The position numbers and the translations under genes were made by a program. From a virus (Duplodnaviria > Caudoviricetes): a stretch of 64,000 bases of DNA. Below are positions 22,631 through 54,838 of this stretch, one piece after another. The stretch is taken from IMG/VR virus record IMGVR_UViG_3300034349_000079, positions 1 through 64,000 of that record; one strand, given 5' to 3'. The first letter of the stretch is position 1. Every line of letters begins with the position of its first letter. The notes beneath the pieces are model-generated. The model was not told where the DNA came from and did not search any database. It saw nothing but the letters and a program-made list of their open reading frames with translations.

Positions 22631-22920
22631 ACTAATTTTCCCCTTTTGGAATGATCGTCCGCTTTATACAAAGCAATAGTAAGACCGAAAAAGTATCAGT
22701 CAAAACGGCTGGCATAGTTCTCACCTAGAGCGGGGACGAAGGCTCTATTTTAACACTTTCGAGCCCTGCTTGCCGCTAGATCGTGTAGACTTCCCAGTTT
22801 TTGAGAACCTGTACATGCAAGCGATGGCTCCATCTAGATTACCACCTTCACCATTTAGTCTTTCAGTAAGCTCTCTGTTTATCCACAGGTTTTCTGCCTT
22901 TATGGTTAGACCCTCTTCGG

Positions 22921-23093
22921 ATTTGTAATGTAAAAACTAACTAAACCAGAACCGGGGTTGTTGTTGTTTTTTAGAAAAAAAACTTTAACTTTTGTAGAAA
23001 AACTACCTACAACTCCTTTTCTCTACTAAGAGCAAAAGAATCAATGGCTTACGGGTGTAAGTAAGAATCTTTCTAGATTACACGCTTACACCC
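22921..23093. repeat. ~175-bp AT-rich dispersed repeat, copy 1
   Basis: roughly 85% match by eye to 37776..37950; ends in a GGGTGTAAG...CTTACACCC inverted repeat. Confidence 0.9.
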
Positions 23094-23103
23094 TTGTTTT
23101 TTC

Positions 23104-27065: not shown

Positions 27066-28673
27066 TTAAATTTTCTCCGCGATGAAATCGGACACAATCT
27101 GAGGAAGGCTCGCATCAGCCCCAACGCAGTCCAGCATTCCGGAGTCTTTTGGATCAGCGATTGTGAAATTAGTCGCAGTCAAGCCCATGACTACTAACTT
27201 CACGTCGTGGCCTACTTGCTGGCGGTATTCGCGCAAAGCTTGTACTGGCTGAATACGGCCGGCGTAAGTCTCTGAATCCGTCGCGATAATTACAGTCTCA
27301 AAGTTCCGTTGCTTCTGTTTAGCCCAAACCACGGGGAGACTGCAATCAGTTCCGCCGAACGGTAATCGATTAGTTTGGCGAATTATATCGTCTAAGCGTT
27401 GTTTAGGGCTGATGTTGAGCGGAATAAAAGACGTCGAAAAGGCCATGAACTCGTAGTCTTCTTCCAGACGCGCGACTGCCATAGCAAAGGCAACAGAGGC
27501 AGTTCTTGCAGTCATATGCGTTCCTGCGACCATGCTACCGTCCATCGAGCCGCTGACATCCATGGCAAACAGGATTTTCTTTCCTGTCGGAGCAACGTTT
27601 TTGAAAGATAGGTAGAAAGCCGCATCCAGAGCATCTACTATCTTTTGAACCGGAGTCCAAGTTAAAGAACCTTTTACACCGCGCCCTGCCTGATAGGTTG
27701 TAAGAGCCAGAAGGATTGAGAAAGGATGTACACGCGCTTTTTGTAAAGCTTCTGCATCCTGTAGTTTGGAGATCACCAACTTTGTTGCTTCGCTATTTGG
27801 TTGAAGTAAGCCAATATTCGTCATCTTCGATAAGTTTCTAAGCGCCGCATGGAGTGGCATCTTTTGGAGCAAGGCTTCCCAGACGGAGACGCTATTGAGC
27901 CAGGTATTCGGAACCATCTCTCTTGTGAGCCCAAAATCATTTATCAGCGCGATATTTGGCTTATCTGGGCTAGCCATTGCCTTGATATGAGCTTGGACAG
28001 TTTGTGGAAGCATTGACTCATCCGCAACTACTTTTCCAACCGCCCACTTGAATAGATCATTCATTTCAGCATCTTTTGGGACTGGATGCGCCATACGTAG
28101 TGCGTCTTTTGTGGACCAGTCGTTACGAGTGCGATACTTGGTGAATTGATAGCCGAGTTGATCTGGGGTCTTGGATGTATACCACGAGGCAACAGTTTCG
28201 CGTAAAACACGTCCCCAGCCTCTAAGTGGATTCACATAGCTGATGAACTCAAACAAATGGCTCTGAGTCCGTACTACAGAAGAAAATACTTTCATGGCTT
28301 CATGACGTACAGGCAGAGTTCCATGCGAGAAGGCCAAGGCCAAAGCAAACAAGGTTGGACTTACTTTAGGACCCCTGCCTTCCACCGAGATTTGCTTGAG
28401 TAGCTGAATAGCTTCAACACCGATGTCTGAAGGAGCGGAGAAAATATCTACGGCTACTTTAGCGTTGTCCTTAGTCAGTTTCTGTTCTGTTGCGTAGTAT
28501 GTACCTCCGGAACTTCCAAGAATAAGAAAACGTTCGAACTGTTTAAGTGGAGAAATTGTAAAGGTCATGCCATGGGCATTGTTAAGCGACATTTCCCGTT
28601 CTCTACCAGGAATGACCTGCGTTTGTGGAGTTGTAGAATATGAGCGAGCGAAGTTTGCGTACGGACCGGACAT
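27066..28673 (-). CDS. rsr: Ro60/Rsr TROVE-domain RNA-binding protein
   Basis: RFLILGSSGGTYY, GWGRVLR, KYRTRNDWSTKDALRMAHP, MPLHAALRNL, vWA DVSGSM, GGTDCSLP, TDSET. Confidence 0.95.
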   Translation of the reverse strand: MSGPYANFARSYSTTPQTQVIPGREREMSLNNAHGMTFTISPLKQFERFLILGSSGGTYYATEQKLTKDNAKVAVDIFSAPSDIGVEAIQLLKQISVEGRGPKVSPTLFALALAFSHGTLPVRHEAMKVFSSVVRTQSHLFEFISYVNPLRGWGRVLRETVASWYTSKTPDQLGYQFTKYRTRNDWSTKDALRMAHPVPKDAEMNDLFKWAVGKVVADESMLPQTVQAHIKAMASPDKPNIALINDFGLTREMVPNTWLNSVSVWEALLQKMPLHAALRNLSKMTNIGLLQPNSEATKLVISKLQDAEALQKARVHPFSILLALTTYQAGRGVKGSLTWTPVQKIVDALDAAFYLSFKNVAPTGKKILFAMDVSGSMDGSMVAGTHMTARTASVAFAMAVARLEEDYEFMAFSTSFIPLNISPKQRLDDIIRQTNRLPFGGTDCSLPVVWAKQKQRNFETVIIATDSETYAGRIQPVQALREYRQQVGHDVKLVVMGLTATNFTIADPKDSGMLDCVGADASLPQIVSDFIAEKI

Positions 28674-33098: not shown

Positions 33099-33788
33099 CT
33101 AGATCTGAAGGAGAGTGGCAGCATTCATGGTGCCAGTTGCACTGATAGTCTTGCCGCCAGCACGACGGCTGGCAACATTAGACTGAAGGGCGCGGAAGTT
33201 AGGACCGGTATGTACACGATACGCAATAGCTTGCGTTAAGGCAGCTGTCAGGGCCTCAGGTGTCTTGTTAACCGGCATGATGGGCGTGCTACTCGTCGCG
33301 TTCCAGGCGAATTGAATAGAATCGCGGGCATGCGGAAAGAACGCGTCACGCTGCAACCCCATGCTCAAAACCGATTCGACGCACGCCGAAATCTCAGCGA
33401 ATTCCAACTTGAATCCGGCGATCTTATCACCCGTGATTTTGTGCTCGAACTCCGGGTGCATCACGACAATGCCGTCGGCTACCGCAAACATGGAAAACAC
33501 GGGCGTTGCCGTCCCGTCAATAAAGGCATCTTCTCCGTCGATTGCAACCTGAAGCTTGCGGACAATGGTTGCAATTTGAACGACGATCTTGTCCGCAAGC
33601 GCGTTGATAACATTCAGGGGCAGCAGCCCTCGGTCGCCACGGACAGCGACATCGCCGATGTGGGCCGTCTTCAGGGTGATATCCACCAGGGGAGTGCGAA
33701 TAACCATTTCTTGGCTCGCACCAATCTGGGTGATGGCGTCGATTTCAACAGGTTTGTCGTTCAGAATGTCGATCAGGAGGTTGGACAT
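33099..33788 (-). CDS. hypothetical protein
   Basis: 229-aa ORF. Confidence 0.7.
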   Translation of the reverse strand: MSNLLIDILNDKPVEIDAITQIGASQEMVIRTPLVDITLKTAHIGDVAVRGDRGLLPLNVINALADKIVVQIATIVRKLQVAIDGEDAFIDGTATPVFSMFAVADGIVVMHPEFEHKITGDKIAGFKLEFAEISACVESVLSMGLQRDAFFPHARDSIQFAWNATSSTPIMPVNKTPEALTAALTQAIAYRVHTGPNFRALQSNVASRRAGGKTISATGTMNAATLLQI

Positions 33789-33843
33789 AGGGTACTCGAT
33801 GAGATAGAGTGATCAGAAAAACGATTAAGCGCGACAGCGCACT

Positions 33844-34083
33844 CTAAGACGTTTTCTTTTTCACAAGATCAGCCACAGTCTTTTCGATGTCGGACATAAT
33901 CTTCCAAGAGCTGATGTCGTCATCTGTAATAGTTATGCCGAAGGTGACTTCAAGATCGTCGGCATACTCGCAGAGTTCTTCATCACTCAAATACAGATAG
34001 TCTTCCAAAGACTCTGTTGGTTTTATACTACCAGGGAAACAGAAGAGAAAATCTTCCATTAAAGTATATACTGTTTCATTCAC
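33844..34083 (-). CDS. acyl-carrier-protein-like protein
   Basis: acidic 79 aa; LE-x-x-F-G-I-x-I-x-D-D-D...SDI pattern; SD instead of DS at the phosphopantetheine site. Confidence 0.6.
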   Translation of the reverse strand: MNETVYTLMEDFLFCFPGSIKPTESLEDYLYLSDEELCEYADDLEVTFGITITDDDISSWKIMSDIEKTVADLVKKKTS

Positions 34084-34120
34084 AGTGCTTCTCCACGCTT
34101 AACATGGTTGAGCATGTTGC

Positions 34121-34345
34121 TCATTTGTTTAAGGCATCTATTGCTTGGCAATATTCGCCATATTTAGGGTCTTTGTAAGATTTGCAATTACAATACCAGT
34201 CTTTCATTTCCGAGCGTGTACAAGTTTTTCCTTTTGCTTTACCATCTGTCGCTGATCCGCCCTTGTTAACTTTTTTCACCAAACGACGGGAGGTTGTTTT
34301 GTTTGGCGTATTCTTTATGGTCTTGGTTATACCTAATTCAGCCAT
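34121..34345 (-). CDS. hypothetical basic Cys-containing protein
   Basis: 74-aa ORF. Confidence 0.5.
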   Translation of the reverse strand: MAELGITKTIKNTPNKTTSRRLVKKVNKGGSATDGKAKGKTCTRSEMKDWYCNCKSYKDPKYGEYCQAIDALNK

Positions 34346-34418
34346 GGTTAGCTCCGCGGTTAAAGTGAAAGCCTCAATAGAAGCTCAACAAGATCTCTAG
34401 TCTTGTTGAGCTTCGTTA

Positions 34419-36308
34419 TTATACCAGAGTCAAACATACACGACAAGAGTTTGGAGAGGCCCTTATTACCTCAACATTTACTTTTTCGTGTCCGTCTGTA
34501 AAACGGTGGAACTCTGCCGCTGTTGCAGGAATGGGCTTCAAGTCCGCTACCTTGTATGCGCCATTCACCCATCCAGTATCGCAGATCATGGTGATCAATC
34601 TCGCAGTTTGTTTGCCAAACCGTTGGAAAAGCTCCGGGGGGGCAAACCTCGCGCTAAGACGAGGCGGGCCGAACGCGATCAAAGCGATGTTGGCATCTTC
34701 GGTGGAGAATTTCTCTCCACCAATCGAACCCGTCAAACTGGCAATCTCAAACTGCCCACGTATCGTTCTAAGCTGTTCGATCAGATCGGCCTTATAGCCT
34801 TCACGTAGCGCTTCATCTTCGATCTCTTCTGCACCAGCGGCTTCTCCGAGGTCGGATGCCAAAGTGCGGTAATTCAGGGCTAGGCTCTTCATTGCCGAAG
34901 CGGCAAGCGGATTACAGGCCGCTCTTGCACCTTCTAGGATCGAGTTTGGTAGGCGAGCATTAGCCTGGTTACGAAAGAACTCCACGTCTGTGAAGAGTTG
35001 GTTTAGTACCAGGGCGCGATTGGCCAGGGCGTGCTCGAATAGCGTACCCTCATCCCAGGTACCGATTTCTACAGCATTTATCAAGGCGATCCATGCCAGG
35101 CGCTTGTTCTCTAGTCCTCCGACGTTTTTGAGCTTGTTGATAAAGTCCGTGATAAATGGCTTTTCAGCCCCATGTTGTCGAACCAATTCCATCAACATGA
35201 GGAACTGAGACTCGACTGTTGCGTTATCGACCGGATGTTTCTTAGCCTGTACCGACGCTTGAGCGACGCCTGCCAATATGCCGCGCAGATGTTCGTCGGC
35301 CAGACCGCGTTCGATCAGCCGCATAGCAGCGAGGATAGTAGGACCTAGCCTACCTGTCACTGTCGATGCAGCAGCTTCGATCATTTGTTTACCGACGTCG
35401 TCAGAGGCGTATTGCTTTGCTTCAGGAGCCAAATAGTCCGGTCTGGATACGGCTCCCTTGGGAAGCAAGACCGCGCTTGGGGCGTAAATTACCCCATTAT
35501 CCCCATCGAAATCTCCACCTCCGGCTTTCCAGTGTTTGGAAGCTGGGTTAAGGATGATGCCATAGATAGCACGAACGGTATCATCGAGCCATTCCAGCAC
35601 ACCAGTGTACATTGCCGGATACATGGATGTCCCGTCTGGCAAAGCTGGATCACGGTGAATCAGGAACCACCGGCCCATCAGTTCATGCGGCTTGACACCG
35701 AGTTGCTTCGCCAATTTGAGGGCTGAGCCCTTCAGTAGCATGAAGCACGGAAACTCTTGATGTTCAAACCTCTCATCATAGGCACCAAAGCGCTCGGATG
35801 GAGTACTTGGCACCAGGGTTGAGCCGTAAATGATGGCTCTTATTCCAGGCGTTTCCAAGCGGTTAAAAGCATCCCATGGCGCGAGTTGATCAAGCAGAAG
35901 GGCTGGCGGGACACCAAATTCGATCTTTAGCTTGCTGTCACGGCCGAGAAGGTCGAGCGCGGTTTTTGTAGTATACCGCAAGGAGTCTTGGTCGAGAAGA
36001 GCAGCGGGATCCTTTGCGCTGAACGAAACGGTCTGCAAGGCCAAGCGGCAACGTTGCTCTCCGATTTCACCTAATTTGTGAAATTTTCCGCTCCCCCCTA
36101 GCGGCTTGCCGAAGCCAGCCTCGTCGCACTTCATCTCCTCTTCATACTCTCCCGTACGGGGATTGTATAGCAACGGACGAACAATTCCCTTGGCTATGGT
36201 AATTGCCCCATCTACGGCTGTTGAGATGAACGTTCCCTGGGCTGGCTCGGAAACACGTGGCCCTAGATATAATGTTCCATCATTTTCGGAACTTTTGAAG
36301 CTTTTCAT
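34419..36308 (-). CDS. single-chain two-barrel RNA polymerase (YonO / RdRP-like)
   Basis: RLETPGIRAII, HRDPALP, GGGDFDGD catalytic motif. Confidence 0.75.
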   Translation of the reverse strand: MKSFKSSENDGTLYLGPRVSEPAQGTFISTAVDGAITIAKGIVRPLLYNPRTGEYEEEMKCDEAGFGKPLGGSGKFHKLGEIGEQRCRLALQTVSFSAKDPAALLDQDSLRYTTKTALDLLGRDSKLKIEFGVPPALLLDQLAPWDAFNRLETPGIRAIIYGSTLVPSTPSERFGAYDERFEHQEFPCFMLLKGSALKLAKQLGVKPHELMGRWFLIHRDPALPDGTSMYPAMYTGVLEWLDDTVRAIYGIILNPASKHWKAGGGDFDGDNGVIYAPSAVLLPKGAVSRPDYLAPEAKQYASDDVGKQMIEAAASTVTGRLGPTILAAMRLIERGLADEHLRGILAGVAQASVQAKKHPVDNATVESQFLMLMELVRQHGAEKPFITDFINKLKNVGGLENKRLAWIALINAVEIGTWDEGTLFEHALANRALVLNQLFTDVEFFRNQANARLPNSILEGARAACNPLAASAMKSLALNYRTLASDLGEAAGAEEIEDEALREGYKADLIEQLRTIRGQFEIASLTGSIGGEKFSTEDANIALIAFGPPRLSARFAPPELFQRFGKQTARLITMICDTGWVNGAYKVADLKPIPATAAEFHRFTDGHEKVNVEVIRASPNSCRVCLTLV

Positions 36309-37175
36309 ACATGACTCTTTTAGTCGTCGTACTGTTAGTCTTCTCTTGGTTCTTGCCTTTCACGAGGCGCTGGTAAAGGCCGTTTATCTCTCCGGGCTTG
36401 TCGCCTATTTTTCTCATTTTCTTTCTTGGATTCTTTGATTTCCATCCATTCTTCTGTGCGCGGTTTTCTCATAGTAGTTGTAAAGCAAGAAGTGGAATTC
36501 CAAGCGCAAATGCGACTAACCAGCCGAGTCTAAAGAGGTCCCCAAGCTGTTGAAAATTAAGTGCAGATATATTACGTGTCGATATAAACAAACAGAAAGC
36601 CATGAGGGCTAAAACAAATAGTGCAAACATCTCAGTATCCTGGGTGAACGTAGTCTAGTCGTGGGTCATCGAAATAATCGTCCGTGTCATCGGGTTCTTC
36701 TTTTTTAATCTTTTTTGGTAATGGATAATCAGGTGGCCCATCAATCCATGTGGCCTCCCATTCCTTGTATGCTTGAGTGAAAGTTTGTTGCATTTTTCAA
36801 AGTATTCCATTGGTTAAGAATCCTATCGATTCTTATAAGTGGGAGGCCACCCACTCTTTCAAGTGTGTAGCGATCCTAGACGAGGACGACTACTAGGTCG
36901 TCCATGAACTAGGTATCTGGTTCTCCAAGACGCTTTGGAATCATAGGCCAGAGTCCATACAGCCATAAGCTGCGTGTTCCCAATGCGCCCACAAACGGCC
37001 GATGGCGGCGGATTGCGGTTGGGCATCGCCCTCAAGGACCATGCTGTCATAGGCAAGCACCAGGAGGAGGTCATCGACGCAGAATTGGTTGTTGTAATAC
37101 ACAGTAGTTCTTCTTTATTGATTGGGCGAGCGAGTGTTCTTTTAAGGCTAGTATACGCTCTATTGGCCAGAGTTT

Positions 37176-37751
37176 CTAGTCCAAATCCAATTCTTCGCTC
37201 GATGATCCGGGCCGCCGAAGCAGGATAGCGACACGGAGAAAGTTGCGAGATCCAAAAGCTGCGAAAACCTCCTCAGGATCCTTGCAAAAATAGGCCCGCT
37301 CATCGGCCATTCCCACCGGGTATAGGCCAAGGCACTCGCAGGCTTCAAGTATGATTGCAACAATCTCGGGGGAAAAACCTTCCTCAGATTTCGCTATTTT
37401 GATCTTGTAGCGATCTACCAGGGGCCTGAATCGTTGGGGTTCTGCCCGTGCATACACCTGATCCATTATACCCTGGTCACCAGGAAGTGGGGTGGTCGTG
37501 TATACGATACAAGCTGAAGCCGTTTGCCTGAAGACTTCCGCCCTTTTAGCCTCGTATAGCAGCATGGCCCTATCTGCTTGTTTGCCCTCTTTCATGGCGT
37601 TTCCGATCTCTGCCCAAATCCTCGCGGCAGGAATACGGTTATTGTCTAACAGCACACCCGGATGACCCCACGTAGTCACCGGAATGGAAAGAACACTCGT
37701 GCCGTCGGTAATCTCAAGGATGTTGTCATTGATCGCTTCTGTTATTCGCAT
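37176..37751 (-). CDS. hypothetical protein
   Basis: ORF probably starting MRITEAIND, directly downstream of repeat copy 2. Confidence 0.6.
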   Translation of the reverse strand: MRITEAINDNILEITDGTSVLSIPVTTWGHPGVLLDNNRIPAARIWAEIGNAMKEGKQADRAMLLYEAKRAEVFRQTASACIVYTTTPLPGDQGIMDQVYARAEPQRFRPLVDRYKIKIAKSEEGFSPEIVAIILEACECLGLYPVGMADERAYFCKDPEEVFAAFGSRNFLRVAILLRRPGSSSEELDLD

Positions 37752-37775
37752 CTTACACCTTGTTTTGCGGGGAAG

Positions 37776-37950
37776 ATTTGTAATGTAAAAACCAACCAAA
37801 CTAGAACCGTAGACTTGTTATTGTTTTTTAGAAAAAAAACTTTAACTCTTTTAGAAAAACTACTTACAACTTCTTTTCTTTACTAAGAGCAAAAGAATCA
37901 ATGACTTATGGGTGTAAGCGAGAATCATTCTAGATTACACGCTTACACCC
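37776..37950. repeat. ~175-bp AT-rich dispersed repeat, copy 2
   Basis: matches 22921..23093. Confidence 0.9.
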
Positions 37951-38036
37951 ATGATTACGCTCGTGTTTCTAACCAGAGCGTAAACCCTGGCTGGACCACA
38001 ATCCATAGAATCAAAGCCAAGGCTAATGCATCCATA

Positions 38037-38550
38037 TCACCCCGCCCGGTTCAAAACCAGATTATCGACCGCTTGGTAAAAGGCGATCAGCAGACCGGTG
38101 TGGCTGTTGAAGGTGTCGTTGGTGCCGCAGACTGCGTGGCCCGAACCAACGGACAGGGTATCGTCTTTCTCCCGATACTGGACAGCGACGAAAGTCGTCC
38201 GGTCTTCGACATCAATGACGATGTCGGTAATGACGATATCGTAGGCTTCCAGATCTTTGGCGGTGGTCTTGTATCCATTGGTTGAGCGACGGAGTGCTTC
38301 CTGCGCGTGGCGCTTCAGATCAAAGCCCTGTTGAGTGGCCCGGGACTTGGCCTTCTTCAGGCGACGACGCAGGTCGACGTTGGTCTGCTCCAGGTCATCG
38401 GCGCGGGTTACTTGGCGCCAGTAACGCTGTTCATAGGCCTCTGCGCGCTCTTCGCTGACAGCAGCGTCGGCTTGAGCTTGGGCGGCTAATTGGTAAGCAA
38501 CTCGTGCTTTGACTTCATTCAAGACGGCTTCTTCGGAAACGTGGGACATT
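38037..38550 (-). CDS. hypothetical coiled-coil protein
   Basis: start probably MSHVSEE. Confidence 0.65.
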
Positions 38551-38592
38551 TTGTGTTCTCTTCGGTTAAACAGACAATTAAGCGCGACAGCG

Positions 38593-38883
38593 CTATTCAT
38601 AGATCTCTATGGCTCTCTTTAGGACCTCTTTTAGAGTGCCTTCAGCAGCGAGTATCGCTGGATACAGTACGATGGAGCGACTGTTTGCCCACCGGTCAAA
38701 GGAGAGGCTGTTGGCTAAATGGATCTCGGTGGTGTCACTATTGTTACCACCGGAGCCGAGATGAACCATAATCTCGCAGTTTCCGATATGTCTGTGGATA
38801 CTGGATCTATCACTGTCATACCAACCAAGTACGAAATCCAGAATTTGGTTTATTGCGTCTTTCTTCTTCATTTGGCGCTCCAA
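38593..38883 (-). CDS. hypothetical protein (paralog of 38901..39149)
   Basis: MKKK.AI..., L.P.I......KE.LKRA.EI.E. Confidence 0.65.
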   Translation of the reverse strand: MERQMKKKDAINQILDFVLGWYDSDRSSIHRHIGNCEIMVHLGSGGNNSDTTEIHLANSLSFDRWANSRSIVLYPAILAAEGTLKEVLKRAIEIYE

Positions 38884-43290: not shown

Positions 43291-43848
43291 TTATGCCATT
43301 ACAAACTCGATCTTGTAGAACAATCGATCGAACAGACGCATGATCAATGCATACAGCCCAATAACTGCCCTATACGAACGTGTAGCAGGCCAGCCGCCAG
43401 CAGCTTGGTCCATGGTCCAAGACACAACTAGCGGAGCAGGTGCTTCGACCTTGCCGTTACGGAAGCCAACGATCAGCGCCTTACACCAGGCGGTAAGCCA
43501 GGTGAATGCAGACGCGACTTGCTTGCTAAGCTTAACCTCGCCGTCGACAGCCAATCGTTGAGTTCCGAAGAAACAACGTAGCTCACGGCCAAGAACAGCG
43601 TAGATCAAAGCGCAGAGAACTGCGGTCGTAAAACCACCAAGCGTGGCAGCAGCGATGCCCATCAGCCAGAGGCCGAACAGGACATCGCTAACAACCAGAT
43701 AGCCTAGCAGCTTCGGTAAGTGCTCCAGCGGCAGTATGTACAGCAAGCCCAATGCGGCAATGACGGCGAGCAAAAACTCACCGCCAAAAACCACATAGGC
43801 AAGCAGCACTAATGCGACCGCTAGAAAAACAGCGGTCTCTCTATCCAT
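43291..43848 (-). CDS. membrane protein
   Basis: several hydrophobic segments. Confidence 0.65.
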   Translation of the reverse strand: MDRETAVFLAVALVLLAYVVFGGEFLLAVIAALGLLYILPLEHLPKLLGYLVVSDVLFGLWLMGIAAATLGGFTTAVLCALIYAVLGRELRCFFGTQRLAVDGEVKLSKQVASAFTWLTAWCKALIVGFRNGKVEAPAPLVVSWTMDQAAGGWPATRSYRAVIGLYALIMRLFDRLFYKIEFVMA

Positions 43849-44802: not shown

Positions 44803-44935
44803 GGTTGATCTCCAGCGGGTTAAAGACAGCCAAATGGCCAGGAATAGAATTACGATGCTACCTCACACAATGCGCGAGCCTAAATCCTCGCGCAAAGCGC
44901 GTCCCCTGCGTAATAACTATCCTTACTTATCCAAC

Positions 44936-45388
44936 TCACCCGAATTCATCACTAAATACACCTCCGGAAGTTTCAGCGCGTTCTGCAAGAGCAGTACGAA
45001 CTTCAATATCTTGACTACGCTCAAGAAGCCGTCCGCCTGGATAGCCAAACGCTATAAGCAGAAAGAAAGCAAAAGCGCTAGCAACCCAATCAATACCAAA
45101 GGCAATTGGGAGCAAGCATAGCGAAACCGCCAAGCCTATGGTAATAGGGAAGTTGTATTCTATGCAAAACAGCAAACAATTCGCTACGAGTATACGCCTG
45201 GGTTTAGCCCAGCACACGATACAAATAAACGTAGCAAGAACAGTATTGATACTTGCATAAACAGCAATAATTCCAAGCACAGCAGGAATACTACCGAAAT
45301 ATACAAGGACCAACGCCCAGGAAATGGAAGCCAAGCTAAACAGCAAAGCTCCCCAAATCTGCATCCATACACTATAAGCTTTCATGTT
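44936..45388 (-). CDS. membrane protein
   Basis: multiple TM segments. Confidence 0.6.
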   Translation of the reverse strand, partial: NMKAYSVWMQIWGALLFSLASISWALVLVYFGSIPAVLGIIAVYASINTVLATFICIVCWAKPRRILVANCLLFCIEYNFPITIGLAVSLCLLPIAFGIDWVASAFAFFLLIAFGYPGGRLLERSQDIEVRTALAERAETSGGVFSDEFG

Positions 45389-45395
45389 AAGTACC

Positions 45396-45902
45396 TCATT
45401 CAAATGTTTCCAAATCGGCGTCGCCTTGACGTCGACCGTCGCCTTGGCGTCGACCGTACGAGACGGGAATACGAATCTGTCTACGATTACCTTCAGGTCC
45501 TAGCAGACCAACTTGGACATCGTGACGAATATTCATTAAAAGTTTGCCAAATTGATTTTCACCGACGGTACGGTAAACACCCCAAAAGGTATTTCCGCAC
45601 CTGTTGTGATAAACTAACTCCTCATCTCCAGTTGCAAGCAATTGAGAACGAAGATAAGGCGTAACAAATTTAAGTTCATTCAAATTTATCATAAGCTGTA
45701 GTCTCATATCATGCCATCCAGGACGAAGTTGAACAAGATTACCGAGGCGACGAGCTTCCTGAGCTGAACCGCACGTAAGTATATCGCGAGCAATAAGCAA
45801 ATCAGTAGTCTTGGAAGCACAATAATGTATAGTGACACAAGTACCTCCAAAAAAGTAATCAGGATGGAGGAACGAAAAGTGCCCAGTGAAATCCTCGATC
45901 AT
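45396..45902 (-). CDS. NADAR/YbiA-family protein
   Basis: F.FL...Y, AQEARRLG, W...RL.LM...KF...LR.QLLATGDEELV, FWG, GENQFGKLLM.IR. Confidence 0.85.
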   Translation of the reverse strand: MIEDFTGHFSFLHPDYFFGGTCVTIHYCASKTTDLLIARDILTCGSAQEARRLGNLVQLRPGWHDMRLQLMINLNELKFVTPYLRSQLLATGDEELVYHNRCGNTFWGVYRTVGENQFGKLLMNIRHDVQVGLLGPEGNRRQIRIPVSYGRRQGDGRRQGDADLETFE

Positions 45903-45951
45903 AACTACCTCAAGCTGGGTCCTGGCAAAAGCCAGAACCCAACATACTACA

Positions 45952-46560
45952 TCAGGCGAGGGGGGGCCTGGCGGGGGCGACAGGAGCTGAATCCTTGCTT
46001 AATAGTCGTTCAAACTGTGCGACGGTGAGTACTAGGTTGTCGAGACGAATAGTACCATCATCGAGACGGGCAACCTCGGCTTGCGTGAAGTTACCGCCTT
46101 TGGCCCGGAGTTGCACGAGCTGGGCCGCCAAGGCGTCATCCAGTTCGGGCTCCTCAAGGGCTTCGCAAAGCTCCTTGACCTGCGTTTGAAGCTCAGCGAT
46201 CTGCTCAACGAACGGAGCAGTGAGCAGCACCTGCTCTTCCAAAATCCGGTCGTTTATATTATGCGTTTCGACGAGGTTGTCGATGCGGGCATTGAGCTCG
46301 CCATACATTTCAGCCAACATTTCGAGGGTCAACGGTTGCTCGTCGCCATTGCTGCCGTAGAGCGCAGCGGCGTGCAAGGCAGTTTCAAGCGTGGTAAGCG
46401 GCTGATCCCCCGCGGGGAGCGCAACCAAGTCATCGACGATATCGACGATATCGCCGGCATGATACGCCGGACCTGTTGCAGCGGTTGATGCGCTTGGTTT
46501 CAACGCTGAAAACGTGCCAGAACCGGCAGTATTACGTTGACGATTACTTCTGTTGGACAT
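45952..46560 (-). CDS. hypothetical protein
   Basis: 202-aa ORF with AGGAG RBS. Confidence 0.65.
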   Translation of the reverse strand: MSNRSNRQRNTAGSGTFSALKPSASTAATGPAYHAGDIVDIVDDLVALPAGDQPLTTLETALHAAALYGSNGDEQPLTLEMLAEMYGELNARIDNLVETHNINDRILEEQVLLTAPFVEQIAELQTQVKELCEALEEPELDDALAAQLVQLRAKGGNFTQAEVARLDDGTIRLDNLVLTVAQFERLLSKDSAPVAPARPPLA

Positions 46561-46620
46561 ACAAATCTCCTATCAAGGTCAAGCCTTGATAACTGTGGTT
46601 GAACGAACAAAATGAAAGCG

Positions 46621-47373
46621 CTAATGACGCTTTTTATCGATCTGACGATCAAAATTGTCGTCAGAATTGCCAGAAAGTTTGCCAGCGGAACCGAAAAGCT
46701 GTTCCATAATGGCGTCGATGCTTTGCTTCATCGTGCTCGAAGAAGAAAAAGCAACTTCGCTAACGCTACCAAGCTGGGCAAGCTTGGATTCAAGCGGTGC
46801 ATGACGAGTATGCTTAGGTGCCAAGCATTCATCGCGATGTTCGCATGTAACGCACTCGCGCGCGGCTCTAGCATTTCTGGTACTGAATATGGTCTTGATG
46901 ACTTTTTCGTTAATGGCCGTAAAGACGATAAAAACTTGCCTATGGAAACGGCGAGAAAGCCTTCCGAAATTATTATTCTCAGAAGCTTCCATTATCCATT
47001 CCATCGGAACAATGTTTTGACGGCTAAGCCATGGTGGGCTCAAATCGCCTCCAGATGCGATCACGCAAGGTCCAGCGGCGATTGCTTCCGGTGTGCCAAC
47101 CACTGCCTGAGAAGCGAGCAATACGTCGCGAAAAGATGCATAGTGCATGGTAGATAATGCAGTATCAATTTCACCTTCTGGGAAAACGAATACCGGATGA
47201 AGAGACCAACTGGAATTTGCCAAGGCGTTTTCCTCGTCATCGTAATGCTGAATAGCAATTATCGCTAACGGAAATGGCGCGCCCGCCTTTTCGATCCATT
47301 CGAGCATGGCTGCGCGAATGATCGCTGCCTTTTCAGGCAACGGGGAAACACCAGAGGTATTGTAACCGAACAT
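46621..47373 (-). CDS. hypothetical protein with C-x2-C-x5-C motif
   Basis: AGGAG RBS before MFGYNTSG. Confidence 0.6.
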   Translation of the reverse strand: MFGYNTSGVSPLPEKAAIIRAAMLEWIEKAGAPFPLAIIAIQHYDDEENALANSSWSLHPVFVFPEGEIDTALSTMHYASFRDVLLASQAVVGTPEAIAAGPCVIASGGDLSPPWLSRQNIVPMEWIMEASENNNFGRLSRRFHRQVFIVFTAINEKVIKTIFSTRNARAARECVTCEHRDECLAPKHTRHAPLESKLAQLGSVSEVAFSSSSTMKQSIDAIMEQLFGSAGKLSGNSDDNFDRQIDKKRH

Positions 47374-47374
47374 G

Positions 47375-47755
47375 TCAAGCACTCCTAGAATCAGGCCGTT
47401 TAGGTATAAAGTCCCACTCTTTAGGGAATCGGATATTTGGAGTAGCCTCCTTAAATAACGCTGCAACTTGTACGGCTGTAAAGCCGGCAAGATTGCAACC
47501 AATGTTAGAAAGCTGGAATTCCAGCTTTGGATGATCACTCGCATACTGAAGGAAGCGAGCGACACTAGCAGTAAAAACTGCGGGAAACTTTCCAGATACA
47601 CCAGAATGAATGTCTTTGGAAATAATGGCATAGGCATTTCCCTGAGGACCATCAGATTGACCGAAACGGGCACCATAATGCTTGCGAGCATGACGCGCTG
47701 CGCCTTTTAAATGATGCCCTTCAGGATCAGAACTGAATACATAAATTACTGTCAC
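47375..47755 (-). CDS. A1S_2505-family (macrodomain-like) phage protein, paralog 1
   Basis: IYVFSS...GHH.KGAA..A...YGA..G...G.QG..YAI. Confidence 0.75.
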   Translation of the reverse strand: MTVIYVFSSDPEGHHLKGAARHARKHYGARFGQSDGPQGNAYAIISKDIHSGVSGKFPAVFTASVARFLQYASDHPKLEFQLSNIGCNLAGFTAVQVAALFKEATPNIRFPKEWDFIPKRPDSRSA

Positions 47756-48026
47756 ATGGGAGACCCTCCAAGGCGTTCATTCAAAATACGCAGAGCCGTT
47801 GCACGATCGCTGGCTATGAAAGGTTCAACAACTTGCTGAACGAAGTCGTTGCCTTCGCAGTCTTCGGTATAATCTTTAACATCGCCAAACCAACGCTTCA
47901 GTTGAAGCAAGCCGTTGCTATGGAGATAACCCCACCACCAAATGGCGTTGGGATTTCGACCGAAAGAATCTTGCATATGATTACCTCACTGAAAAAAGGC
48001 CGATCCATCGGCCAAACACAGCGGAG

Positions 48027-48530
48027 TTACATGATATCCAGGATCGGAATTCCATACTCCTCGGCCATATGAAGCATCTGACCAACACCATCGGTGCGCC
48101 TACCGGCGAACGTTATACTGTAAACACGATCCACCGGTGTGTTGAGATACGGCCCCAGGAGAATAAAGCAATTCCTGGCTTGCATTAATCGCGCGGCTTC
48201 AGAAGCCCGGGTCCAAGCCGGATGGAATTTCTTCGCCAAGTCGAGCGCCGCCTGCGTTACACCGTGCCGAACGATGAAATTGAAGTAGGCCAGATTGGTC
48301 GCAGGATCTTTCCAAGATCCAATTTCATATGTTGGCCAAGGCAAATAACATTCGCAATAACCTTCTGCTTGGCGCCAACCTCGCATGAATGCCTGGCTGG
48401 CGCCCCAATCGCAGCCGGTGCGAAGTGTATGCCCTGCTTTACCAAGTTCCCGTGAGAAAGCAGCTGCACGATCAACAGCAGCATTAGATGCAGAACGGCT
48501 ACCAACCCCGGTAAAAATCATATAAATCAC
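48027..48530 (-). CDS. SLOG/DprA-like protein
   Basis: FTGVGSR, LRTGC..GA..AF, L.ARNCF.LLG, GVGQ. Confidence 0.75.
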   Translation of the reverse strand: MIYMIFTGVGSRSASNAAVDRAAAFSRELGKAGHTLRTGCDWGASQAFMRGWRQAEGYCECYLPWPTYEIGSWKDPATNLAYFNFIVRHGVTQAALDLAKKFHPAWTRASEAARLMQARNCFILLGPYLNTPVDRVYSITFAGRRTDGVGQMLHMAEEYGIPILDIM

Positions 48531-48823
48531 CTCAAATTGGTTTAGCTAAAGTGCAAGGAACGTTTTCACTCTGACTCCCATCGGTCGCAAGCGTCAAAAA
48601 GAGGAAGTTCGTTAGTACATAATACCAATCGTTGATACCTCGCAGAATAAACGGTATGTGGAAAAAACTGGCCGTGAAGGGGATATGCGATGACATCAGC
48701 GGCATCGATAGTCCGATAAAAACGGCACGTAGAACATTTCTGGGTTTGGCCATCTAACAACATAGATATACCTATACTTTTGATTGATACAAAACCGTAT
48801 TTACAGTGCCCGTATCTCCTATA

Positions 48824-49261
48824 CTACACTTCCGGGATTTGAAAGAATAAAGTTCGATCTAAAATGAATTGTTCAGAATCAGGCACAAAATGCCATTCTA
48901 TTGGCACAATATATTCTTTAATAAATGAAAATTCCTCTGATGTCATTGTATGTAATACAGCGTTTGGAAACATTGTGTAGAGCGATAGTAAAGCAACTCT
49001 CTTTGTCATTTTGAAAACAGATGACAAAGCAGTTATACGATATTTGATTGGAGCAGTTTTGTCGGTATAAACCAACCAATTAAAGCTGTACATAGGTATT
49101 AGTGGTCTGGTATCCCTTTCATAAAGGCGAATTATAGCGATAGCAACTGGTCTATCAGCCTTATAAATTCGTAAAGCAGCTTGAGAAAAATCTGATGCAT
49201 AGAAATCTATGACATCAGTTACCGTGCACAAAGTGCTTAGATAAACCATAGTTTTTCTCAC
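48824..49261 (-). CDS. hypothetical protein
   Basis: 145-aa ORF. Confidence 0.55.
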   Translation of the reverse strand: MRKTMVYLSTLCTVTDVIDFYASDFSQAALRIYKADRPVAIAIIRLYERDTRPLIPMYSFNWLVYTDKTAPIKYRITALSSVFKMTKRVALLSLYTMFPNAVLHTMTSEEFSFIKEYIVPIEWHFVPDSEQFILDRTLFFQIPEV

Positions 49262-50323
49262 CTACAAAAAAGGCCAATCCTTTGGCCAATGAGGATCATT
49301 CATTCATTCAATCGATACTGAAACACCAAGCGGCAAAGCATACAGCGAAAATAAACGCTGCTATGACAAGCCAATCAATAAAACCAGGAAGTTTGGCCAT
49401 GGTAGCAATCTCAAGTTGGTGTTGTCAAAATTCAAATTGGATACATGCCTCCTAATCTGATAATGAGAGAGCCAATGATCACGATAAGTACGACAACTAT
49501 CGCGAACAGTAAAGCCCAGGGGTCAAACTTATGTGCCATAGTTAGTCAACGCCGTTGCAATCCAAAAGATCATCCATTGGTTCTTCCCAATAAGCAGTAG
49601 CGGGCTGAAATTCCTCAGAAGGAACCAGCCGGACAGGGGCAACAACGTTGATCTCGATTTCGATATTGCATTCCTCCGTTACGTTAAGGGAGACAGTCAA
49701 GCCAAAGGAGACAATGCCTGCAATACCTTGCGTAAAGGTTGTGGATAACACCTCGCTCACAACGGCAAGAACCTGCCTATGAAATACAAGAGTCTGTGCC
49801 ATGTCTTCTGGTGACATAATAATTTTCATACGCACCTCGTTGGTTTAAACCACGAACAACTCACCTATAGCGCGAGCCCTAATCCCTGGCGCTACGCGCC
49901 CGTTGACATTTTGGGGCTGTACATAATGTAAATAATAATAACCAAGAGCGAGGTTGACAAAAATGAGTAACAACATGACAAATTTGAAATTAAAAATCTT
50001 CATTTGATTCCTCCGCGAAATCATAACATTCGATGTAAAGATCAATGTCAAGAACATCATAACTTTCTAAGGTGTAACACAAAGTTGCTCCAGTCGTCAA
50101 ACCTTTAGCATCATAAGCAACAAAAAATACTTCTTGATAGGCTCCAAAAGTTGTATCCATGGAGATTCGCTTGTAGCCATTAGACGCGAAATGAATAATC
50201 CAATCGCTAGGGGGAATCTGTGGAAACTCGCATACAGTACTCACTGTGACAGTATGAAATAGGTTGTATGACATCTTATTATCACTTATAAAGTAGGGCT
50301 CCGGCTGCCGGAGCCCAACATCG

Positions 50324-50779
50324 CTAAACAATCACCGTCGCATCTTGAAAGTCATTCAGAATGTCGACAAGCGCGTGCGCTTGATTGATAGCCGTAGAGG
50401 CAAAGCAGTCGGTCAGGGTATAGTTATTAGAAGCAGCCAGGCGAGCCAGCTCCTTGATGAGGTCTGGATGAGCATCTGCCCATACCTCCCATAGCGCCTT
50501 ATAGGCTTCATAGAGTTGTGCAGAAGTCATATCATTCAATGGGGGCTTACGTTTGCCGAGCTGCCAGTTCTGGCCACCAGGGTCATAACCTTTGGTGTCA
50601 CACTGATAGTGCATTTCGATAGAGCGGCCATCTGGCATAATAGCGTTAAAAGCCGAGAAGCGTTTATCGCCACGGCTGCTGACTTCGTAACCATTACCCA
50701 GGCGCGCCCAAAGATAACGTCGATTCATAATCACTCCGCTACGTGGATTGTTGTTGGCCCTGTGATGGGCGGGCTTCAT
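50324..50779 (-). CDS. conserved phage protein, possibly NADAR-related
   Basis: GYEVSSRGDKRFSAF...DGRSIE.HYQ...KGY; family link is tentative. Confidence 0.55.
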   Translation of the reverse strand: MKPAHHRANNNPRSGVIMNRRYLWARLGNGYEVSSRGDKRFSAFNAIMPDGRSIEMHYQCDTKGYDPGGQNWQLGKRKPPLNDMTSAQLYEAYKALWEVWADAHPDLIKELARLAASNNYTLTDCFASTAINQAHALVDILNDFQDATVIV

Positions 50780-51192
50780 TTCTCACCGTGTACCACGAGA
50801 GCACTAGTAATAGTTATTACATGGCAGGTAAGCTTCACCATGCCAGGGAGTTGCTGATCTGCAAAAGCAGCACGTAGTTCTCTCGCCTTTTCTACCTCTC
50901 TTGCCCGCGATACCTTTGTTCTCGCGGTCTTATCAGCAAGCCTTTCCAGCCTACGATTCTCTTTACGCTGGCGTTTAGCTTCTTTGGCCATGAACGCCTC
51001 GCGATTTCTCTCGCGTTCAAGGCGTACTTTAATCTCATCAATTTTGTCGTGCCTCGCAAGTAACAGTTCAAGTCGTCGAGCTGATGTGTCGTCGAGCAGT
51101 TGAACTAGCTCGATTTCTATAAGATCAGGGATCTTTGAAAGTTCTATAAGTTCTTCATCTGTGAGCGAACCAAAATGTACAGTTGTAAACAT
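50776..51192 (-). CDS. hypothetical charged protein
   Basis: 138-aa ORF. Confidence 0.6.
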   Translation of the reverse strand: MFTTVHFGSLTDEELIELSKIPDLIEIELVQLLDDTSARRLELLLARHDKIDEIKVRLERERNREAFMAKEAKRQRKENRRLERLADKTARTKVSRAREVEKARELRAAFADQQLPGMVKLTCHVITITSALVVHGEK

Positions 51193-51412
51193 TCTGTAAA
51201 TTACCTCAATTGGTTAGAATTTTGGGCCCTTTCGACACGTTCACAATAAGCTATATCAAAGAGTTTAAGCTCATGTGCAGTGAGCGCATGGCTATAAATC
51301 AATGGTTGCTCGTATTTGCGTGGATCGTTCGGCCAGTACATTGTCACCAACTCTTCGATCTGTTCTTCGGTGAGCATAATGCTTACCTATTGATTAGAGC
51401 ATAAAAGTTACC

Positions 51413-51850
51413 TTACTCGTCGGCTCTGGCTTTCAAGGCAGCTATGCGGAGCTTGATCCGGATGATCAAATCATCCAAAGCTAGATGCGCTATACTTGGA
51501 TCTTCGGGTGGAATCCACTCGACGGCAACGTACTTAGCGATTTCAAGCACCTTGCTAAAAATCAGGGAGGCAATTGTTCTATGCGGGAAATCTTGATCAA
51601 GCATGATCACTAACATCTTCCCGCAAAGCTCGATAAGTTGCTCCCCAGTGAGAGCTGTACCAGGCTCGCAGATACCTACTCGTATGGCCATCCCTCTGAT
51701 GATCCTAGTAAGCTCATCACGCTGACCGCGAACCTCTTCCAACTCGGCAGTGCGTTGTTGAAGCATTGCTAAAGTTTCATCACGCTGCTGGTGCATACGG
51801 GAGAGCTGACGATTACGCTCTCCAGAAGTACCTTCTTCTTCTTCATTCAT
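51413..51850 (-). CDS. hypothetical protein (paralog of 51847..52254)
   Basis: MA..VG.CE.G..L...QL...C..MLVIM. Confidence 0.65.
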   Translation of the reverse strand: MNEEEEGTSGERNRQLSRMHQQRDETLAMLQQRTAELEEVRGQRDELTRIIRGMAIRVGICEPGTALTGEQLIELCGKMLVIMLDQDFPHRTIASLIFSKVLEIAKYVAVEWIPPEDPSIAHLALDDLIIRIKLRIAALKARADE

Positions 51851-52254
51851 ACTAAATCTCCAGGTTGGGCTTTCAAAGCGGTTATATGATTCTTGATTTG
51901 AGTACTCAAATACTCCAAAGCTAGAAAAGCTTGCTCGGAAGTAGTTGGCATCTTCCAGGCGATACCAACATGATTGGCAATATCGAGCAATTGCGCAAGG
52001 AGCATGAGCGCAGTCTCTTCATAACGATTAGGAGCATGCATAATCACGAGCATGTCTGCACAAAAGCCCGTGAGTTGCGTACTAGAAAGATTGGCACCCG
52101 TTTCACATAAGCCTACGCTCGTAGCCATGTAGGCAATAAGACGTCCCATATCATTACGTTGCTCGGTCCTTTCGTTCAGTTCTGCGGTAAGCAGGGCTAT
52201 CTCGGCATTGCGTTCATTAAGAGCTTGCTCAAGTTCTTTTTCATTGGTGTTCAT
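51847..52254 (-). CDS. hypothetical protein (paralog of 51413..51850)
   Basis: same motif. Confidence 0.65.
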   Translation of the reverse strand: MNTNEKELEQALNERNAEIALLTAELNERTEQRNDMGRLIAYMATSVGLCETGANLSSTQLTGFCADMLVIMHAPNRYEETALMLLAQLLDIANHVGIAWKMPTTSEQAFLALEYLSTQIKNHITALKAQPGDLV

Positions 52255-52267
52255 GTTAAGTTTCCGA

Positions 52268-52627
52268 TCAAACGGCTAATGGAACCCACGCATCAGGCAA
52301 CCGCACATTAGGTGTATAGCCCTTGAAAAGTGGGGCAATCTGTATAGGCATAAAGCCTGCGAGTCCGCAACCAATGTCGGCCACGATAAACGTGTCATCA
52401 GGATGTTCGCGGGCATATTGCAGGAAGGCAATCACGCTAATCCTGATCTGTTCCGCGGTGATAGCGAGCTCATCACGCCTTAATTCTTTTGTTATGATGG
52501 CGTAAGAATCATTTTGTCGACCTTCGGCACGACCAGAGATAGCGCCATATACAATGCGAGCGTGCTTAGCAGCACCCTTACCATGATGCTCTTCGGAAGT
52601 ACTTCCAAATACGTAGATTGTTGTCAT
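52268..52627 (-). CDS. A1S_2505-family protein, paralog 2
   Basis: IYVFGS...HHGKGAA...IGCGLAGF. Confidence 0.75.
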   Translation of the reverse strand: MTTIYVFGSTSEEHHGKGAAKHARIVYGAISGRAEGRQNDSYAIITKELRRDELAITAEQIRISVIAFLQYAREHPDDTFIVADIGCGLAGFMPIQIAPLFKGYTPNVRLPDAWVPLAV

Positions 52628-53477
52628 AGTAGTACACACGTCTCTATCCAGTCGGGAATGTCTTCAATATGTTCTACCCAACCGGGAACTTCACGCTCTA
52701 AATAGGGCTCACCTTTATCCCTATCAAGTTCTTTATCATAGTCATTGACATCGCACCAAGTGCCATCTTTCCACATATAAATTTGCATAGCCATTACAGC
52801 TGCCGCCTCAACCATTTATCAATGTCCGCGATAAATTTAACAGACTGTAGAACCGTCCACGTCACAATAATAGAACCTCTATCAGCGTCAAGTGATGGAT
52901 CGTAGTCATTGACATCCATCCAGGAGAGGTCTTTAAACACATGAATTCTCATTGTAGACTCCAATAGGTTGACGATCACTGATTGCGCGAGCCCTAATCC
53001 CCGCGCGAACGCGCGCCTATATAAGACGCGTCACAGAGAATTTGGTACAACCATAGGACGGCTGTACCTCCTGCTCCTTCTCCTGGCCACACACACAGCG
53101 TAACCAGAGTCGGCGTTGAAAGGCCAAAACATCCAATGAGGTGTCTTGGCCAGAAGTGATTTGTTCTCCCAGCCGGAGGATAGGCAATTCAGTCTAGTAT
53201 GCTGTTAACTATCGCTTCAAGCGGACGGCCTTCGTTCACTCACTGATTACGCAGTCATAATCCGCGCGCGAAGCGCGCGCCCCTACGCAAGAAGCGAAAT
53301 AGGGCGAACAGGAAACTAGCTTATTTTTTAACGTGTTTTCAATAAATAAAATATGAGCAAAATCAATAACTTACCTAACCTTTTTTGTGCTTAGTTACAG
53401 AACTGATGACCCCACCGCAGAAGGTTAAGGCAAAAGTGCAGAGCCAGAGCTTACGCTCTGACCCTGCACTACACTGC

Positions 53478-54347: not shown

Positions 54348-54442
54348 TGTATTCTCCAAACAGGTGGGTAGTGGAAAGGCCCACGCACAGTGCGTGAGTC
54401 TTAATCCTGGCGCAAAGGGCTTGATAGCACGTTTTCAGATTT

Positions 54443-54757
54443 TCAGGTTGTCTGCATCTGGCACGTTAGGTGTTGGATCTTCACCAGGGCCCGGCCGCCG
54501 TGCTCGTCTTCAATCACTTGCACTCCGGGAACGAACGTCAGCGCCTCAGATAAGGCATAAGAGCCGTCCTGGTTAAGATACTGACTTGTCACCTGCACCA
54601 AGCAGCCGACGCCATCGATCTGCATGGCCTTGGTGGATTTCGTCCAATTTTGCTGATTAGAGCTTTCCTTGCTAATTAATCGCCAGGCATCGACACCGAA
54701 TACCTTCACATCCGTTGTTGTTGCAGTCTTCGTGTCATCAAGCGTTTTCATGGCCAT
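54443..54757 (-). CDS. conserved phage hypothetical protein
   Basis: W.KSTKAMQIDGVGCLVQVT...SEALTFVPGV pattern. Confidence 0.65.
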   Translation of the reverse strand: MAMKTLDDTKTATTTDVKVFGVDAWRLISKESSNQQNWTKSTKAMQIDGVGCLVQVTSQYLNQDGSYALSEALTFVPGVQVIEDEHGGRALVKIQHLTCQMQTT

Positions 54758-54790
54758 GATATATCTCCAAACAAGTGGTGGATTATGAGC

Positions 54791-54838
54791 GAAAGGCCCA
54801 CGCACAATGCGTGAGCCTTAATCCTGGCGCGAAGCGCC
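54791..54838. promoter_or_regulatory. representative of the early-region AAAGGCCCACGCACA..GCGCGAGCCTTAATCCT-GCGC-GAA-GCGC motif (~10 copies, 44.8-59.3 kb)
   Basis: recurrent intergenic motif always upstream of a minus-strand RBS. Confidence 0.65.

Follow-up and report, generated by a model that had tools for sequence, protein, structure and literature searches.

A predicted two-barrel RNA polymerase core from a peat phage, with its putative N-terminal domain in a separate gene

We describe here a protein, P0001, that is probably the catalytic core of a phage DNA-dependent, non-virion, single-subunit two-barrel RNA polymerase (RNAP), with gp64 of phage P23-45 as its nearest characterized relative and with its N-terminal domain coming from a separate gene. 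P0001 is encoded within the first 64,000 nucleotides of IMG/VR record IMGVR_UViG_3300034349_000079, the stretch that we call the window; the full record (83.6 kb, estimated to be 64% complete) represents a tailed phage found in peat metagenomes. The cellular transcription enzyme has its simplest relatives in the single-subunit two-barrel RNAPs, of which to our knowledge only a few have been studied, namely YonO, crAss gp66, and P23-45 gp64 and gp96.

The polymerase core and its fold

The P0001 open reading frame (ORF) occupies positions 34419-36308 of the minus strand and encodes 629 aa from an ATG. An earlier reading of the window, made from the letters alone (hereafter the sequence-only reading), had put a 629-aa ORF at exactly this position, without naming the strand, and had reported R-x-P-x-L and GGDFDGD motifs in it. 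Both motifs are present, as residues 218-226 read HRDPALPDG (R219-x-P221-x-L223) and residues 264-270 read GGDFDGD, which contains the Asp triad D266/D268/D270. P0001 thus carries the marker of the two-barrel superfamily, R-x-P-x-L followed by a Mg-binding DxDGD loop in the beta-prime-like barrel. A word-indexed search returned 33 metagenomic homologues of P0001 at 29-62% identity, and an exhaustive phmmer search of 1.84 billion representatives returned 62 relatives, 35 of them at E<=1e-30. In the alignment of the 33 homologues, H218, R219, D220, P221, P224, G265, D266, D268, G269, and D270 are invariant, and so are K357, H358, and V360 in the helix after the Asp-triad loop. Both motifs are invariant across ~60 metagenomic homologues, none of which matches Pfam, PHROGs, NCBIfam, or a GenBank phage; they therefore represent an active-site signature under conservation and did not arise by chance.

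An AlphaFold2 model of P0001 was built on the family alignment (pLDDT 88.1, pTM 0.77) and compared with known structures. With Foldseek, the top matches in the PDB were the RNA polymerases gp64 of Thermus phage P32 and gp62 of P74-26 (E 3e-13), followed in descending order by QDE-1, the P23-45 virion RNAP gp96, plant RDR2, and bacterial beta-prime; in BFVD the matches were P23-45 gp64 itself and modules in crAss-like giant proteins. With VIA-align, the model aligned with gp62/gp64 (8f5m/8f72) at Z 20.4 over 437-439 residues (rmsd 3.9-4.1 Å, model residues 1-571), with QDE-1/RDR2 at Z 17-18.6 over ~340-450 residues, with gp96 at Z 11 over 251-265 residues, and with Rpb1/beta-prime at Z ~10-11, the last covering only model residues ~143 to 431. 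Since the beta-prime chains align only from residue ~143 onward, P0001 residues 1-142 would be the beta-like barrel and connector, and residues 143-431 of the model are the beta-prime-like barrel with the Asp triad, bridge helix, and trigger-loop region.

Along the predicted structure, a first double-psi beta-barrel (DPBB), which is DPBB-B-like (residues ~1-80), is followed by a helical connector/clamp (residues ~91-149), a second barrel (DPBB-A, residues ~155-275) bearing D266/D268/D270, bridge-helix/trigger-loop-like helices in which the alignment places an invariant KKHxV (residues 356-360), a helical C-terminal clamp region, and a family-specific beta mini-domain (residues ~570-629) that ends in a conserved S-T-R-V. 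The predicted structure therefore has two DPBBs at one active site together with a bridge helix, and the fold on which the sequence-only reading had staked its claim is the one that AlphaFold predicts. Taking sequence, family alignment, AlphaFold model, VIA-align, and hhalign (see below) together, P0001 is almost certainly a two-barrel RNAP with both barrels in one chain, and the proposal of a small two-barrel RNAP with a catalytic Asp triad is borne out by the model, Foldseek, and VIA-align. With both barrels in the P0001 chain, no beta-like partner would be needed. The earlier statement that no beta-like partner subunit is recognizable in the window holds for a beta-like subunit, but there is a gene upstream for a detached N-terminal module, which is a partner of a different kind.

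Database searches by sequence gave few matches to known proteins. P0001, the putative N-terminal module P0081, and the fused forms of the family had no match in Pfam, PHROGs, or NCBIfam (the fused form being P0028 for NCBIfam and an 824-aa ORF of the related phage G001 for PHROGs), and P0001 matched no Pfam family up to E 10, PF05183 and the Rpb1 domain profiles included. Among PDB chains, neither the single protein (phmmer) nor the family profile (hmmsearch) gave more than chance matches, and gp64/gp62 were not found in this way. No relative was found among GenBank phages by megablast of the region or by tblastn queries of P0001 and P0028, KPP25 and AP1, which are relatives by capsid, contain no member of the polymerase family, and scans of IMG/VR, JGI, and GTDB for further loci yielded two informative loci and one Deinococcus match. 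Profile comparison did connect the family to gp64: hhalign gave 93.3% (E 2.6e-7, 200 columns) and paired HRDPALPD with NRRPDLPT, GGDFDGD with GADYDGD, and QAxVDAKKH with QVAVDRQKR (family/gp64), and the family HMM recovered gene 64 from the genome of P23-45 (E 0.0027). The homology to gp64 thus appears detectable in sequence, but the link is weak. The profile match to gp96 was weaker (hhalign 39%), and no similarity to SPbeta YonO was detectable (hhalign probability 0.08%, E 0.66). Of the kinships proposed from the letters, those with QDE-1-type RNA-dependent RNA polymerases (RdRPs) and with multisubunit RNAPs stand at the level of fold, whereas that with YonO does not, and gp64 is closest.

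In Chaban et al. (2024, PMC10770324), gp64 is described, on experimental evidence, as a monomeric DNA-templated RNAP of crab-claw shape that is absent from virions and that transcribes early genes as well as some of the middle genes from a GC-rich promoter, and its clade as one of phage and plasmid single-subunit enzymes together with eukaryotic RNAi polymerases. The supplementary tables of that paper contain no HRDPALP or GGDFDGD string. The small single-subunit two-barrel RNAP has therefore been a known type since 2024, and the P0001 family is a separate, unnamed family that lies nearest to gp64 within the single-subunit two-barrel clade. Like members of this family, P23-45 gp64 and P74-26 gp62 (8F72, 8F5M) are small two-barrel RNAPs of ~600 aa with the order first barrel, clamp connector, Asp-triad barrel, bridge helix, and C-terminal clamp; they are the best fold match (Z 20.4-21.8) and, at 93%, the only profile-level sequence link among the known systems, and the gp64 gene likewise sits in an early/replication block and not in a virion protein. 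The differences are that gp64 is only ~15% identical to P0001, that the hosts of gp64 phages are thermophilic whereas those of the P0001 family are mesophilic (peat), that the fused form of the P0001 family is longer by ~98 residues at the N-terminus and bears a beta mini-domain of ~55-60 residues at the C-terminus, both absent from gp64, that the N-terminal domain is a separate gene in the P0001 phage, and that neither the sequenced part nor the complete relative showed a virion paralogue fused to a tape-measure protein.

Other known systems are more distant. SPbeta YonO is also a phage single-polypeptide RNAP with a DFDGD loop, but it has no profile similarity to P0001 (it was compared by profile only), and we rejected it as comparator on the hhalign probability given above in favor of gp64. 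The gp96 tape-measure fusion and gp66 of phi14:2, a crAss-like phage, belong to the same two-barrel clade (gp96 by its Z of 11, crAss-like proteins by their place in the BFVD list), but P0001 is free-standing, small, clamp-bearing, and encoded outside the structural module. The multisubunit RNAPs of the jumbo phages phiKZ and AR9 (PMC7598289) share with our case a polymerase encoded in separate genes; there, however, the barrels are split among beta and beta-prime homologues, whereas P0001 keeps both and it is the N-terminal domain that is detached. Membership of P0001 in the multisubunit beta-prime/Rpb1 group was rejected, as there is no Rpb1 profile match and no separate beta partner was found. 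Within the 83.6-kb record, a D-x-DGD scan of all ORFs of at least 60 aa found only the P0001 gene and one chance-like match of 141 aa, and the family profile found the P0001 gene alone, no Rpb2 (beta-subunit) profile having been used.

Two further sets of relatives were observed. In Deinococcus xinjiangensis NBRC 107630 (NZ_BAABRN010000001.1; L005:8927-11482), an 851-aa ORF contains HRDPALPDGTS, GGGDFDGDD, and QWAVDCQKRD and matches the family profile (hhalign 97.5%, E 6e-12) with no Pfam match and, for the N-module profile, no sequence similarity; it looks like a two-barrel RNAP homologue in a Deinococcus-Thermus bacterium, possibly located on a prophage or plasmid. In addition, both barrels of the family match, by plain phmmer and at E down to 4e-11, internal modules of metagenomic proteins of 2,300-4,000 aa (P0065, P0066, P0070, P0075-P0077, and P0080), of which P0070 also has the virion-structural-protein signature phrog_6958. 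These giant proteins may be virion polymerases that parallel gp96 and crAss gp66.

A detached N-terminal module

About one-third of the family members are ~780-840 aa long and have ~190 additional N-terminal residues, and ~30 members, the majority, have the short architecture of P0001 and begin at the same residue. In the window, the residues that P0001 lacks seem to be encoded ~870 bp upstream of the core gene by P0081 (37176-37751, minus strand; 191 aa), which over its full length is homologous to the first ~185 residues of the fused ~800-aa members. Its likely start is the ATG at 37751, and the longest ORF begins at a TTG at 37799. P0081 is 36% identical to P0028 residues 7-183 (E 7e-26) and 32% identical to P0030 (E 2e-19), and the module and the core have diverged equally from these fused forms (36%/32% for the module, 36%/33% for the core), a pattern that suggests co-descent of the two. 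On the related viral contigs L002 and L003, the module is joined directly and in frame to the core, and the two fused ORFs are 807 and 824 aa long.

The fused forms also indicate what the module would be. The AlphaFold model of P0028 is one compact body (pLDDT 92.8, pTM 0.88), in which residues 99-729 superpose on gp64 residues 2-574 at Z 21.8 over 518 residues, and the alignment with QDE-1/RDR2 starts at residue 19-66 and extends over ~460-575 residues. From the superposition on gp64, the second half of the module occupies the position of the gp64 N-terminal domain, and its first ~98 residues would be specific to the P0001 family. Residue 1 of the P0001 model corresponds to gp62/gp64 residue ~101 in the structural alignment, and P0001 therefore lacks the N-terminal domain, which PMC10770324 gives as common to gp64, gp96, QDE-1, and phi14:2 gp66. 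The gp64 arrangement, in which a single monomeric polypeptide contains the N-terminal domain as well as the two-barrel core, is thus found in P0028, L002, and L003 but not in the window. In a quick maximum-likelihood tree (midpoint root, moderate support with SH-aLRT 84), 30 short forms including P0001 nest as one group inside the fused forms, which argues that the short architecture is derived, and the split arrangement looks to have come from a fused ~800-aa ancestral form.

We lean toward a two-piece enzyme rather than a single-chain one, in which P0081 and P0001 would assemble. The sequence-only reading had called the polymerase single-chain; this is right for the two barrels but not for the N-terminal domain, which lies in the separate 191-aa gene ~870 bp upstream, and "single-chain" should better be replaced by "two-barrel core plus detached N-terminal domain gene." That reading had also counted dependence on a second subunit encoded elsewhere against itself; a candidate second gene does exist, but it is inside the window and is not beta-like.

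Several points weigh against our overall interpretation. The assembly of P0081 and P0001 is deduced from the fused homologues only, and the N-module profile has no sequence similarity to gp64, so that their equivalence is structural only. No free-standing N-module was found for the other short-form members, including P0002, which is 62% identical to P0001, in a search of 5.8 billion proteins with a single sequence and a three-sequence profile that depended on shared exact words; the core may therefore act alone, with P0081 as an accessory or relic. No RNA dataset with the polymerase region was found among public runs. As the record is only ~64% complete, a second, virion polymerase could lie in the missing third. 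Finally, QDE-1 and RDR2 score near gp64, so the fold alone would be compatible with RNA-templated synthesis.

A core that acts alone amounts to a distinct explanation, which we consider the less probable one while giving it appreciable weight: the 629-aa core is fully active as a true single chain, in line with the sequence-only reading, and P0081 is dispensable, being a relic of the fission or a repurposed protein. The short forms do make up most of the family, as one tree group with a shared architecture and starting residue, and the empty search for free modules points the same way, but that search hinges on shared exact words. The P0081 ORF, moreover, is intact and as similar to the fused modules (32-36% identity) as the core is to its counterparts, which argues for purifying selection, and the N-terminal domain is conserved in all four polymerases for which PMC10770324 reports it.

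The ~870-bp spacer that splits the enzyme contains three small minus-strand ORFs and an uncertain stretch (36794-37175). The ORFs encode an acidic protein of 53 aa (36632-36793), a hydrophobic, membrane-like protein of 53 aa (36469-36630), and a basic protein of 45 aa (36335-36472); they abut tightly across 36335-36793, with overlapping stops and starts, and the last ends 27 nt before the core ATG. An Rfam scan of 36200-38700 found no intron and no other RNA family. Contigs from two peat-metagenome runs span 33800-37827 with no differences, no joints, and no fused variant, although these runs may be the source of the record itself and are not independent of it.

Genome neighborhood, template, and Ro60

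The record encodes terminase, portal, major head protein, ribonucleotide reductase, rIIA, thymidylate synthase, family A DNA polymerase, primase-helicase, RNA ligase, Ro60, and many tRNAs, and proteins of this phage are also found on a 131.6-kb contig. The P0001 gene lies among early/replication genes, on the strand opposite the head genes, just past the early region and ahead of the primase and DNA polymerase genes. Two IMG/VR records, G001 (67 kb, rated complete) and G002, are distantly related to it, at 35-50% protein identity, and share its gene order, which in the three phages consists of a conserved 185-aa gene, the polymerase, an optional Ro60, the primase, and the DNA polymerase. The 185-aa gene (43291-43848, minus strand, in the window) lies upstream of the polymerase in all three, immediately so in the complete relative, with 31-37% identity and no family match; its product might be a transcription accessory factor.

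By analogy with gp64, the template of P0001 is most likely DNA and its task the transcription of phage genes, as gp64 and gp96, the biochemically characterized phage enzymes of the clade that PMC10770324 names, use DNA templates, and we regard P0001 as quite likely to be both DNA-dependent and non-virion. An RNA-dependent or dual enzyme that acts on RNA, such as the Ro60/Y-RNA/tRNA battery, or that makes double-stranded or small RNAs as QDE-1 does, seems unlikely to us. QDE-1 and RDR2 (PF05183) do share the single-chain two-barrel core and the DxDGD loop, and their fold scores come close to that of gp64 (Z 17-18.6 vs 20.4); ESM-Atlas look-alike clusters with RdRP-named proteins, one of them with PF05183 on 46% of its members, point in the same direction, as leads only. 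P0001, however, has no PF05183 match even at E 10, is much smaller and phage-borne, and is closest to gp64 both by fold and by profile, so that the kinship with QDE-1/RDR2 is at the level of the superfamily, and nothing in its gene context indicates RNA-templated activity.

The context evidence for a role on RNA comes from Ro60: two of the three related phages have it, together with Y-like RNAs, at a distance of 1-6 kb downstream of the polymerase. In the window, the Ro60 gene is at 27066-28673 on the minus strand (TROVE + vWA_Ro60). In the G002 fragment (L003:13000-15444), Ro60 (547 aa, 49.5% identical to that of the window) lies ~2 kb downstream of the fused polymerase, and between the two are a 128-nt tRNA-like RNA with a long insert and a Y/sbRNA-like Rfam match of 36.8 bits, just below the gathering score. 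The family matched there is a nematode sRNA family, which we take to be the stem-bulge (Y-like) family. The Ro60/Y-RNA cassette thus recurs at the same genomic slot. The complete 67-kb relative G001, on the other hand, has the polymerase but no Ro60. From the shared gene order and from this absence, the Ro60 neighborhood is inherited, with Ro60 and its RNAs as an insert between polymerase and primase, and the adjacency is no evidence that the polymerase serves Ro60. The link between the polymerase and the Ro60/Y-RNA battery that the sequence-only reading had drawn is therefore explained by inherited gene order.

A polymerase packaged in the virion and injected with the DNA, as in N4, crAss, or gp96-like systems, and reading early GCGC-GAA-GCGC hairpins, is in our judgment very unlikely. 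In its favor are the relatives nearest to the family from outside it, the modules in proteins of 2,300-4,000 aa described above, one of them with phrog_6958, and the ten early motifs, described below, with a hairpin on the template strand and, by eye, no sigma-70 hexamer match upstream. Against it, the P0001 gene sits among early/replication genes on the strand opposite the head genes, the protein is small and free-standing rather than part of a giant virion protein, and its fold match to the clamp-bearing, non-virion gp64 is twice that to the flat virion gp96 (Z 20.4 vs 11).

For a non-virion P0001, the polymerase genes would first be transcribed by the host RNAP, or by a virion enzyme from the unsequenced third, and the P0001 enzyme would then transcribe middle or replication genes from phage-specific signals. 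This T7-like or P23-45-like scheme is suggested by the position of the gene after the early region and by its early leftward place in the complete relative G001, where the leftward block has the polymerase among its first genes. In G001 the family profile picked up no gene but the known one, and a scan of its ORFs of at least 60 aa for D-x-DGD or D-[FYLIVM]-D-x-D gave three other matches (two in ORFs of 325-432 aa, one in an ORF of 138 aa), none of them RNAP-like, and no Asp-triad match in the 2,211-aa virion protein. A single RNAP in G001 favors the T7-like order, in which the host enzyme first transcribes the polymerase gene.

Candidate signals and implications

Several non-coding elements near the polymerase genes could be regulatory. 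Directly upstream of the N-module gene is an AT-rich non-coding repeat of ~180 nt (37775-37956, minus strand) that opens with an 11-bp hairpin (GGGTGTAAGCG...CGCTTACACCC), and the primase gene has a further copy upstream of it (22920-23099), 91% identical over 142 nt (families D3 and D9). At 37775-37956 contigs reach a summed depth of ~5x the flanking level and several of them end, so further copies probably lie in the unsequenced part. This repeat may act as a regulatory region or promoter of the polymerase operon. At the other end, a perfect palindrome with a 15-bp stem (34380-34414) begins 5 nt after the core stop codon and is a possible transcription stop or RNA-stability hairpin.

Two classes of GCGC hairpin are intergenic and lie on the sense strand of leftward genes. 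Class A, GCGC-TTC-GCGC-yAGGATTAAGGCTCGCGC, has ten early copies at 44.9-59.3 kb (44864-59256) with the hairpin on the template strand, and no sigma-70 hexamer match was seen upstream of them by eye, no formal promoter scan of that region having been made. Class B, AGAGT-GCGC-TGTC-GCGC-TTAATTG on the sense strand (family D5), is represented next to the polymerase block by the hairpin at 38582-38593 on the minus strand and has five copies in all, with minus-strand starts at 41025, 38593, 33840, 20256, and 10710 (span 10688-41032), all of them lying between genes and each followed after 25-35 nt by a ribosome-binding site and start codon. The block with both polymerase genes is flanked by the copies at 38593 and 33840, the latter of which has a terminator-like score as well. 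Class B is a candidate promoter or terminator. Sigma-70-like promoters and terminators in 33700-38700 did not exceed shuffled expectation, and L002, L003, and G001 have no repeated hairpin or k-mer signal like class A or B. The GCGC-hairpin motifs are the obvious candidate signals for the polymerase, although nothing ties the hairpins or the AT-rich repeat to the enzyme. A bolder proposal, and in our view a long shot, is that P0081 would be a dissociable initiation/specificity subunit, that no self-sufficient elongating RNAP of the cellular type would be smaller than P0001, and that exchange or absence of the module would switch the enzyme between the two hairpin classes (10 early and 5 middle copies), which would be read as extruded DNA hairpins as in phage N4.

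Elsewhere in the genome, two ORFs appear to contain insertions. The large terminase ORF of ~900 aa (62694-64000; L008:3-2714) has LAGLIDADG/Hom_end matches in its middle and is intein-like, and the ribonucleotide reductase ORF of 1,031 aa (L008:5436-8531) contains a segment that resembles a foreign insert.

What is new here is a mesophilic, gp64-like family that had not been described and in which a domain has split off naturally. The family has dozens of members and is un-annotated in every library searched, and through it the gp64-like type reaches beyond a handful of Thermus phages to mesophilic phages of 67-131 kb in peat and other metagenomes. P0001 is a candidate polymerase for the two hairpin-motif classes of its genome, and a functional tie between Ro60 and the polymerase is no longer required. 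The natural separation of the N-terminal domain from the core is a ready-made experiment on the role of a conserved domain, as fused and split forms can be compared directly.

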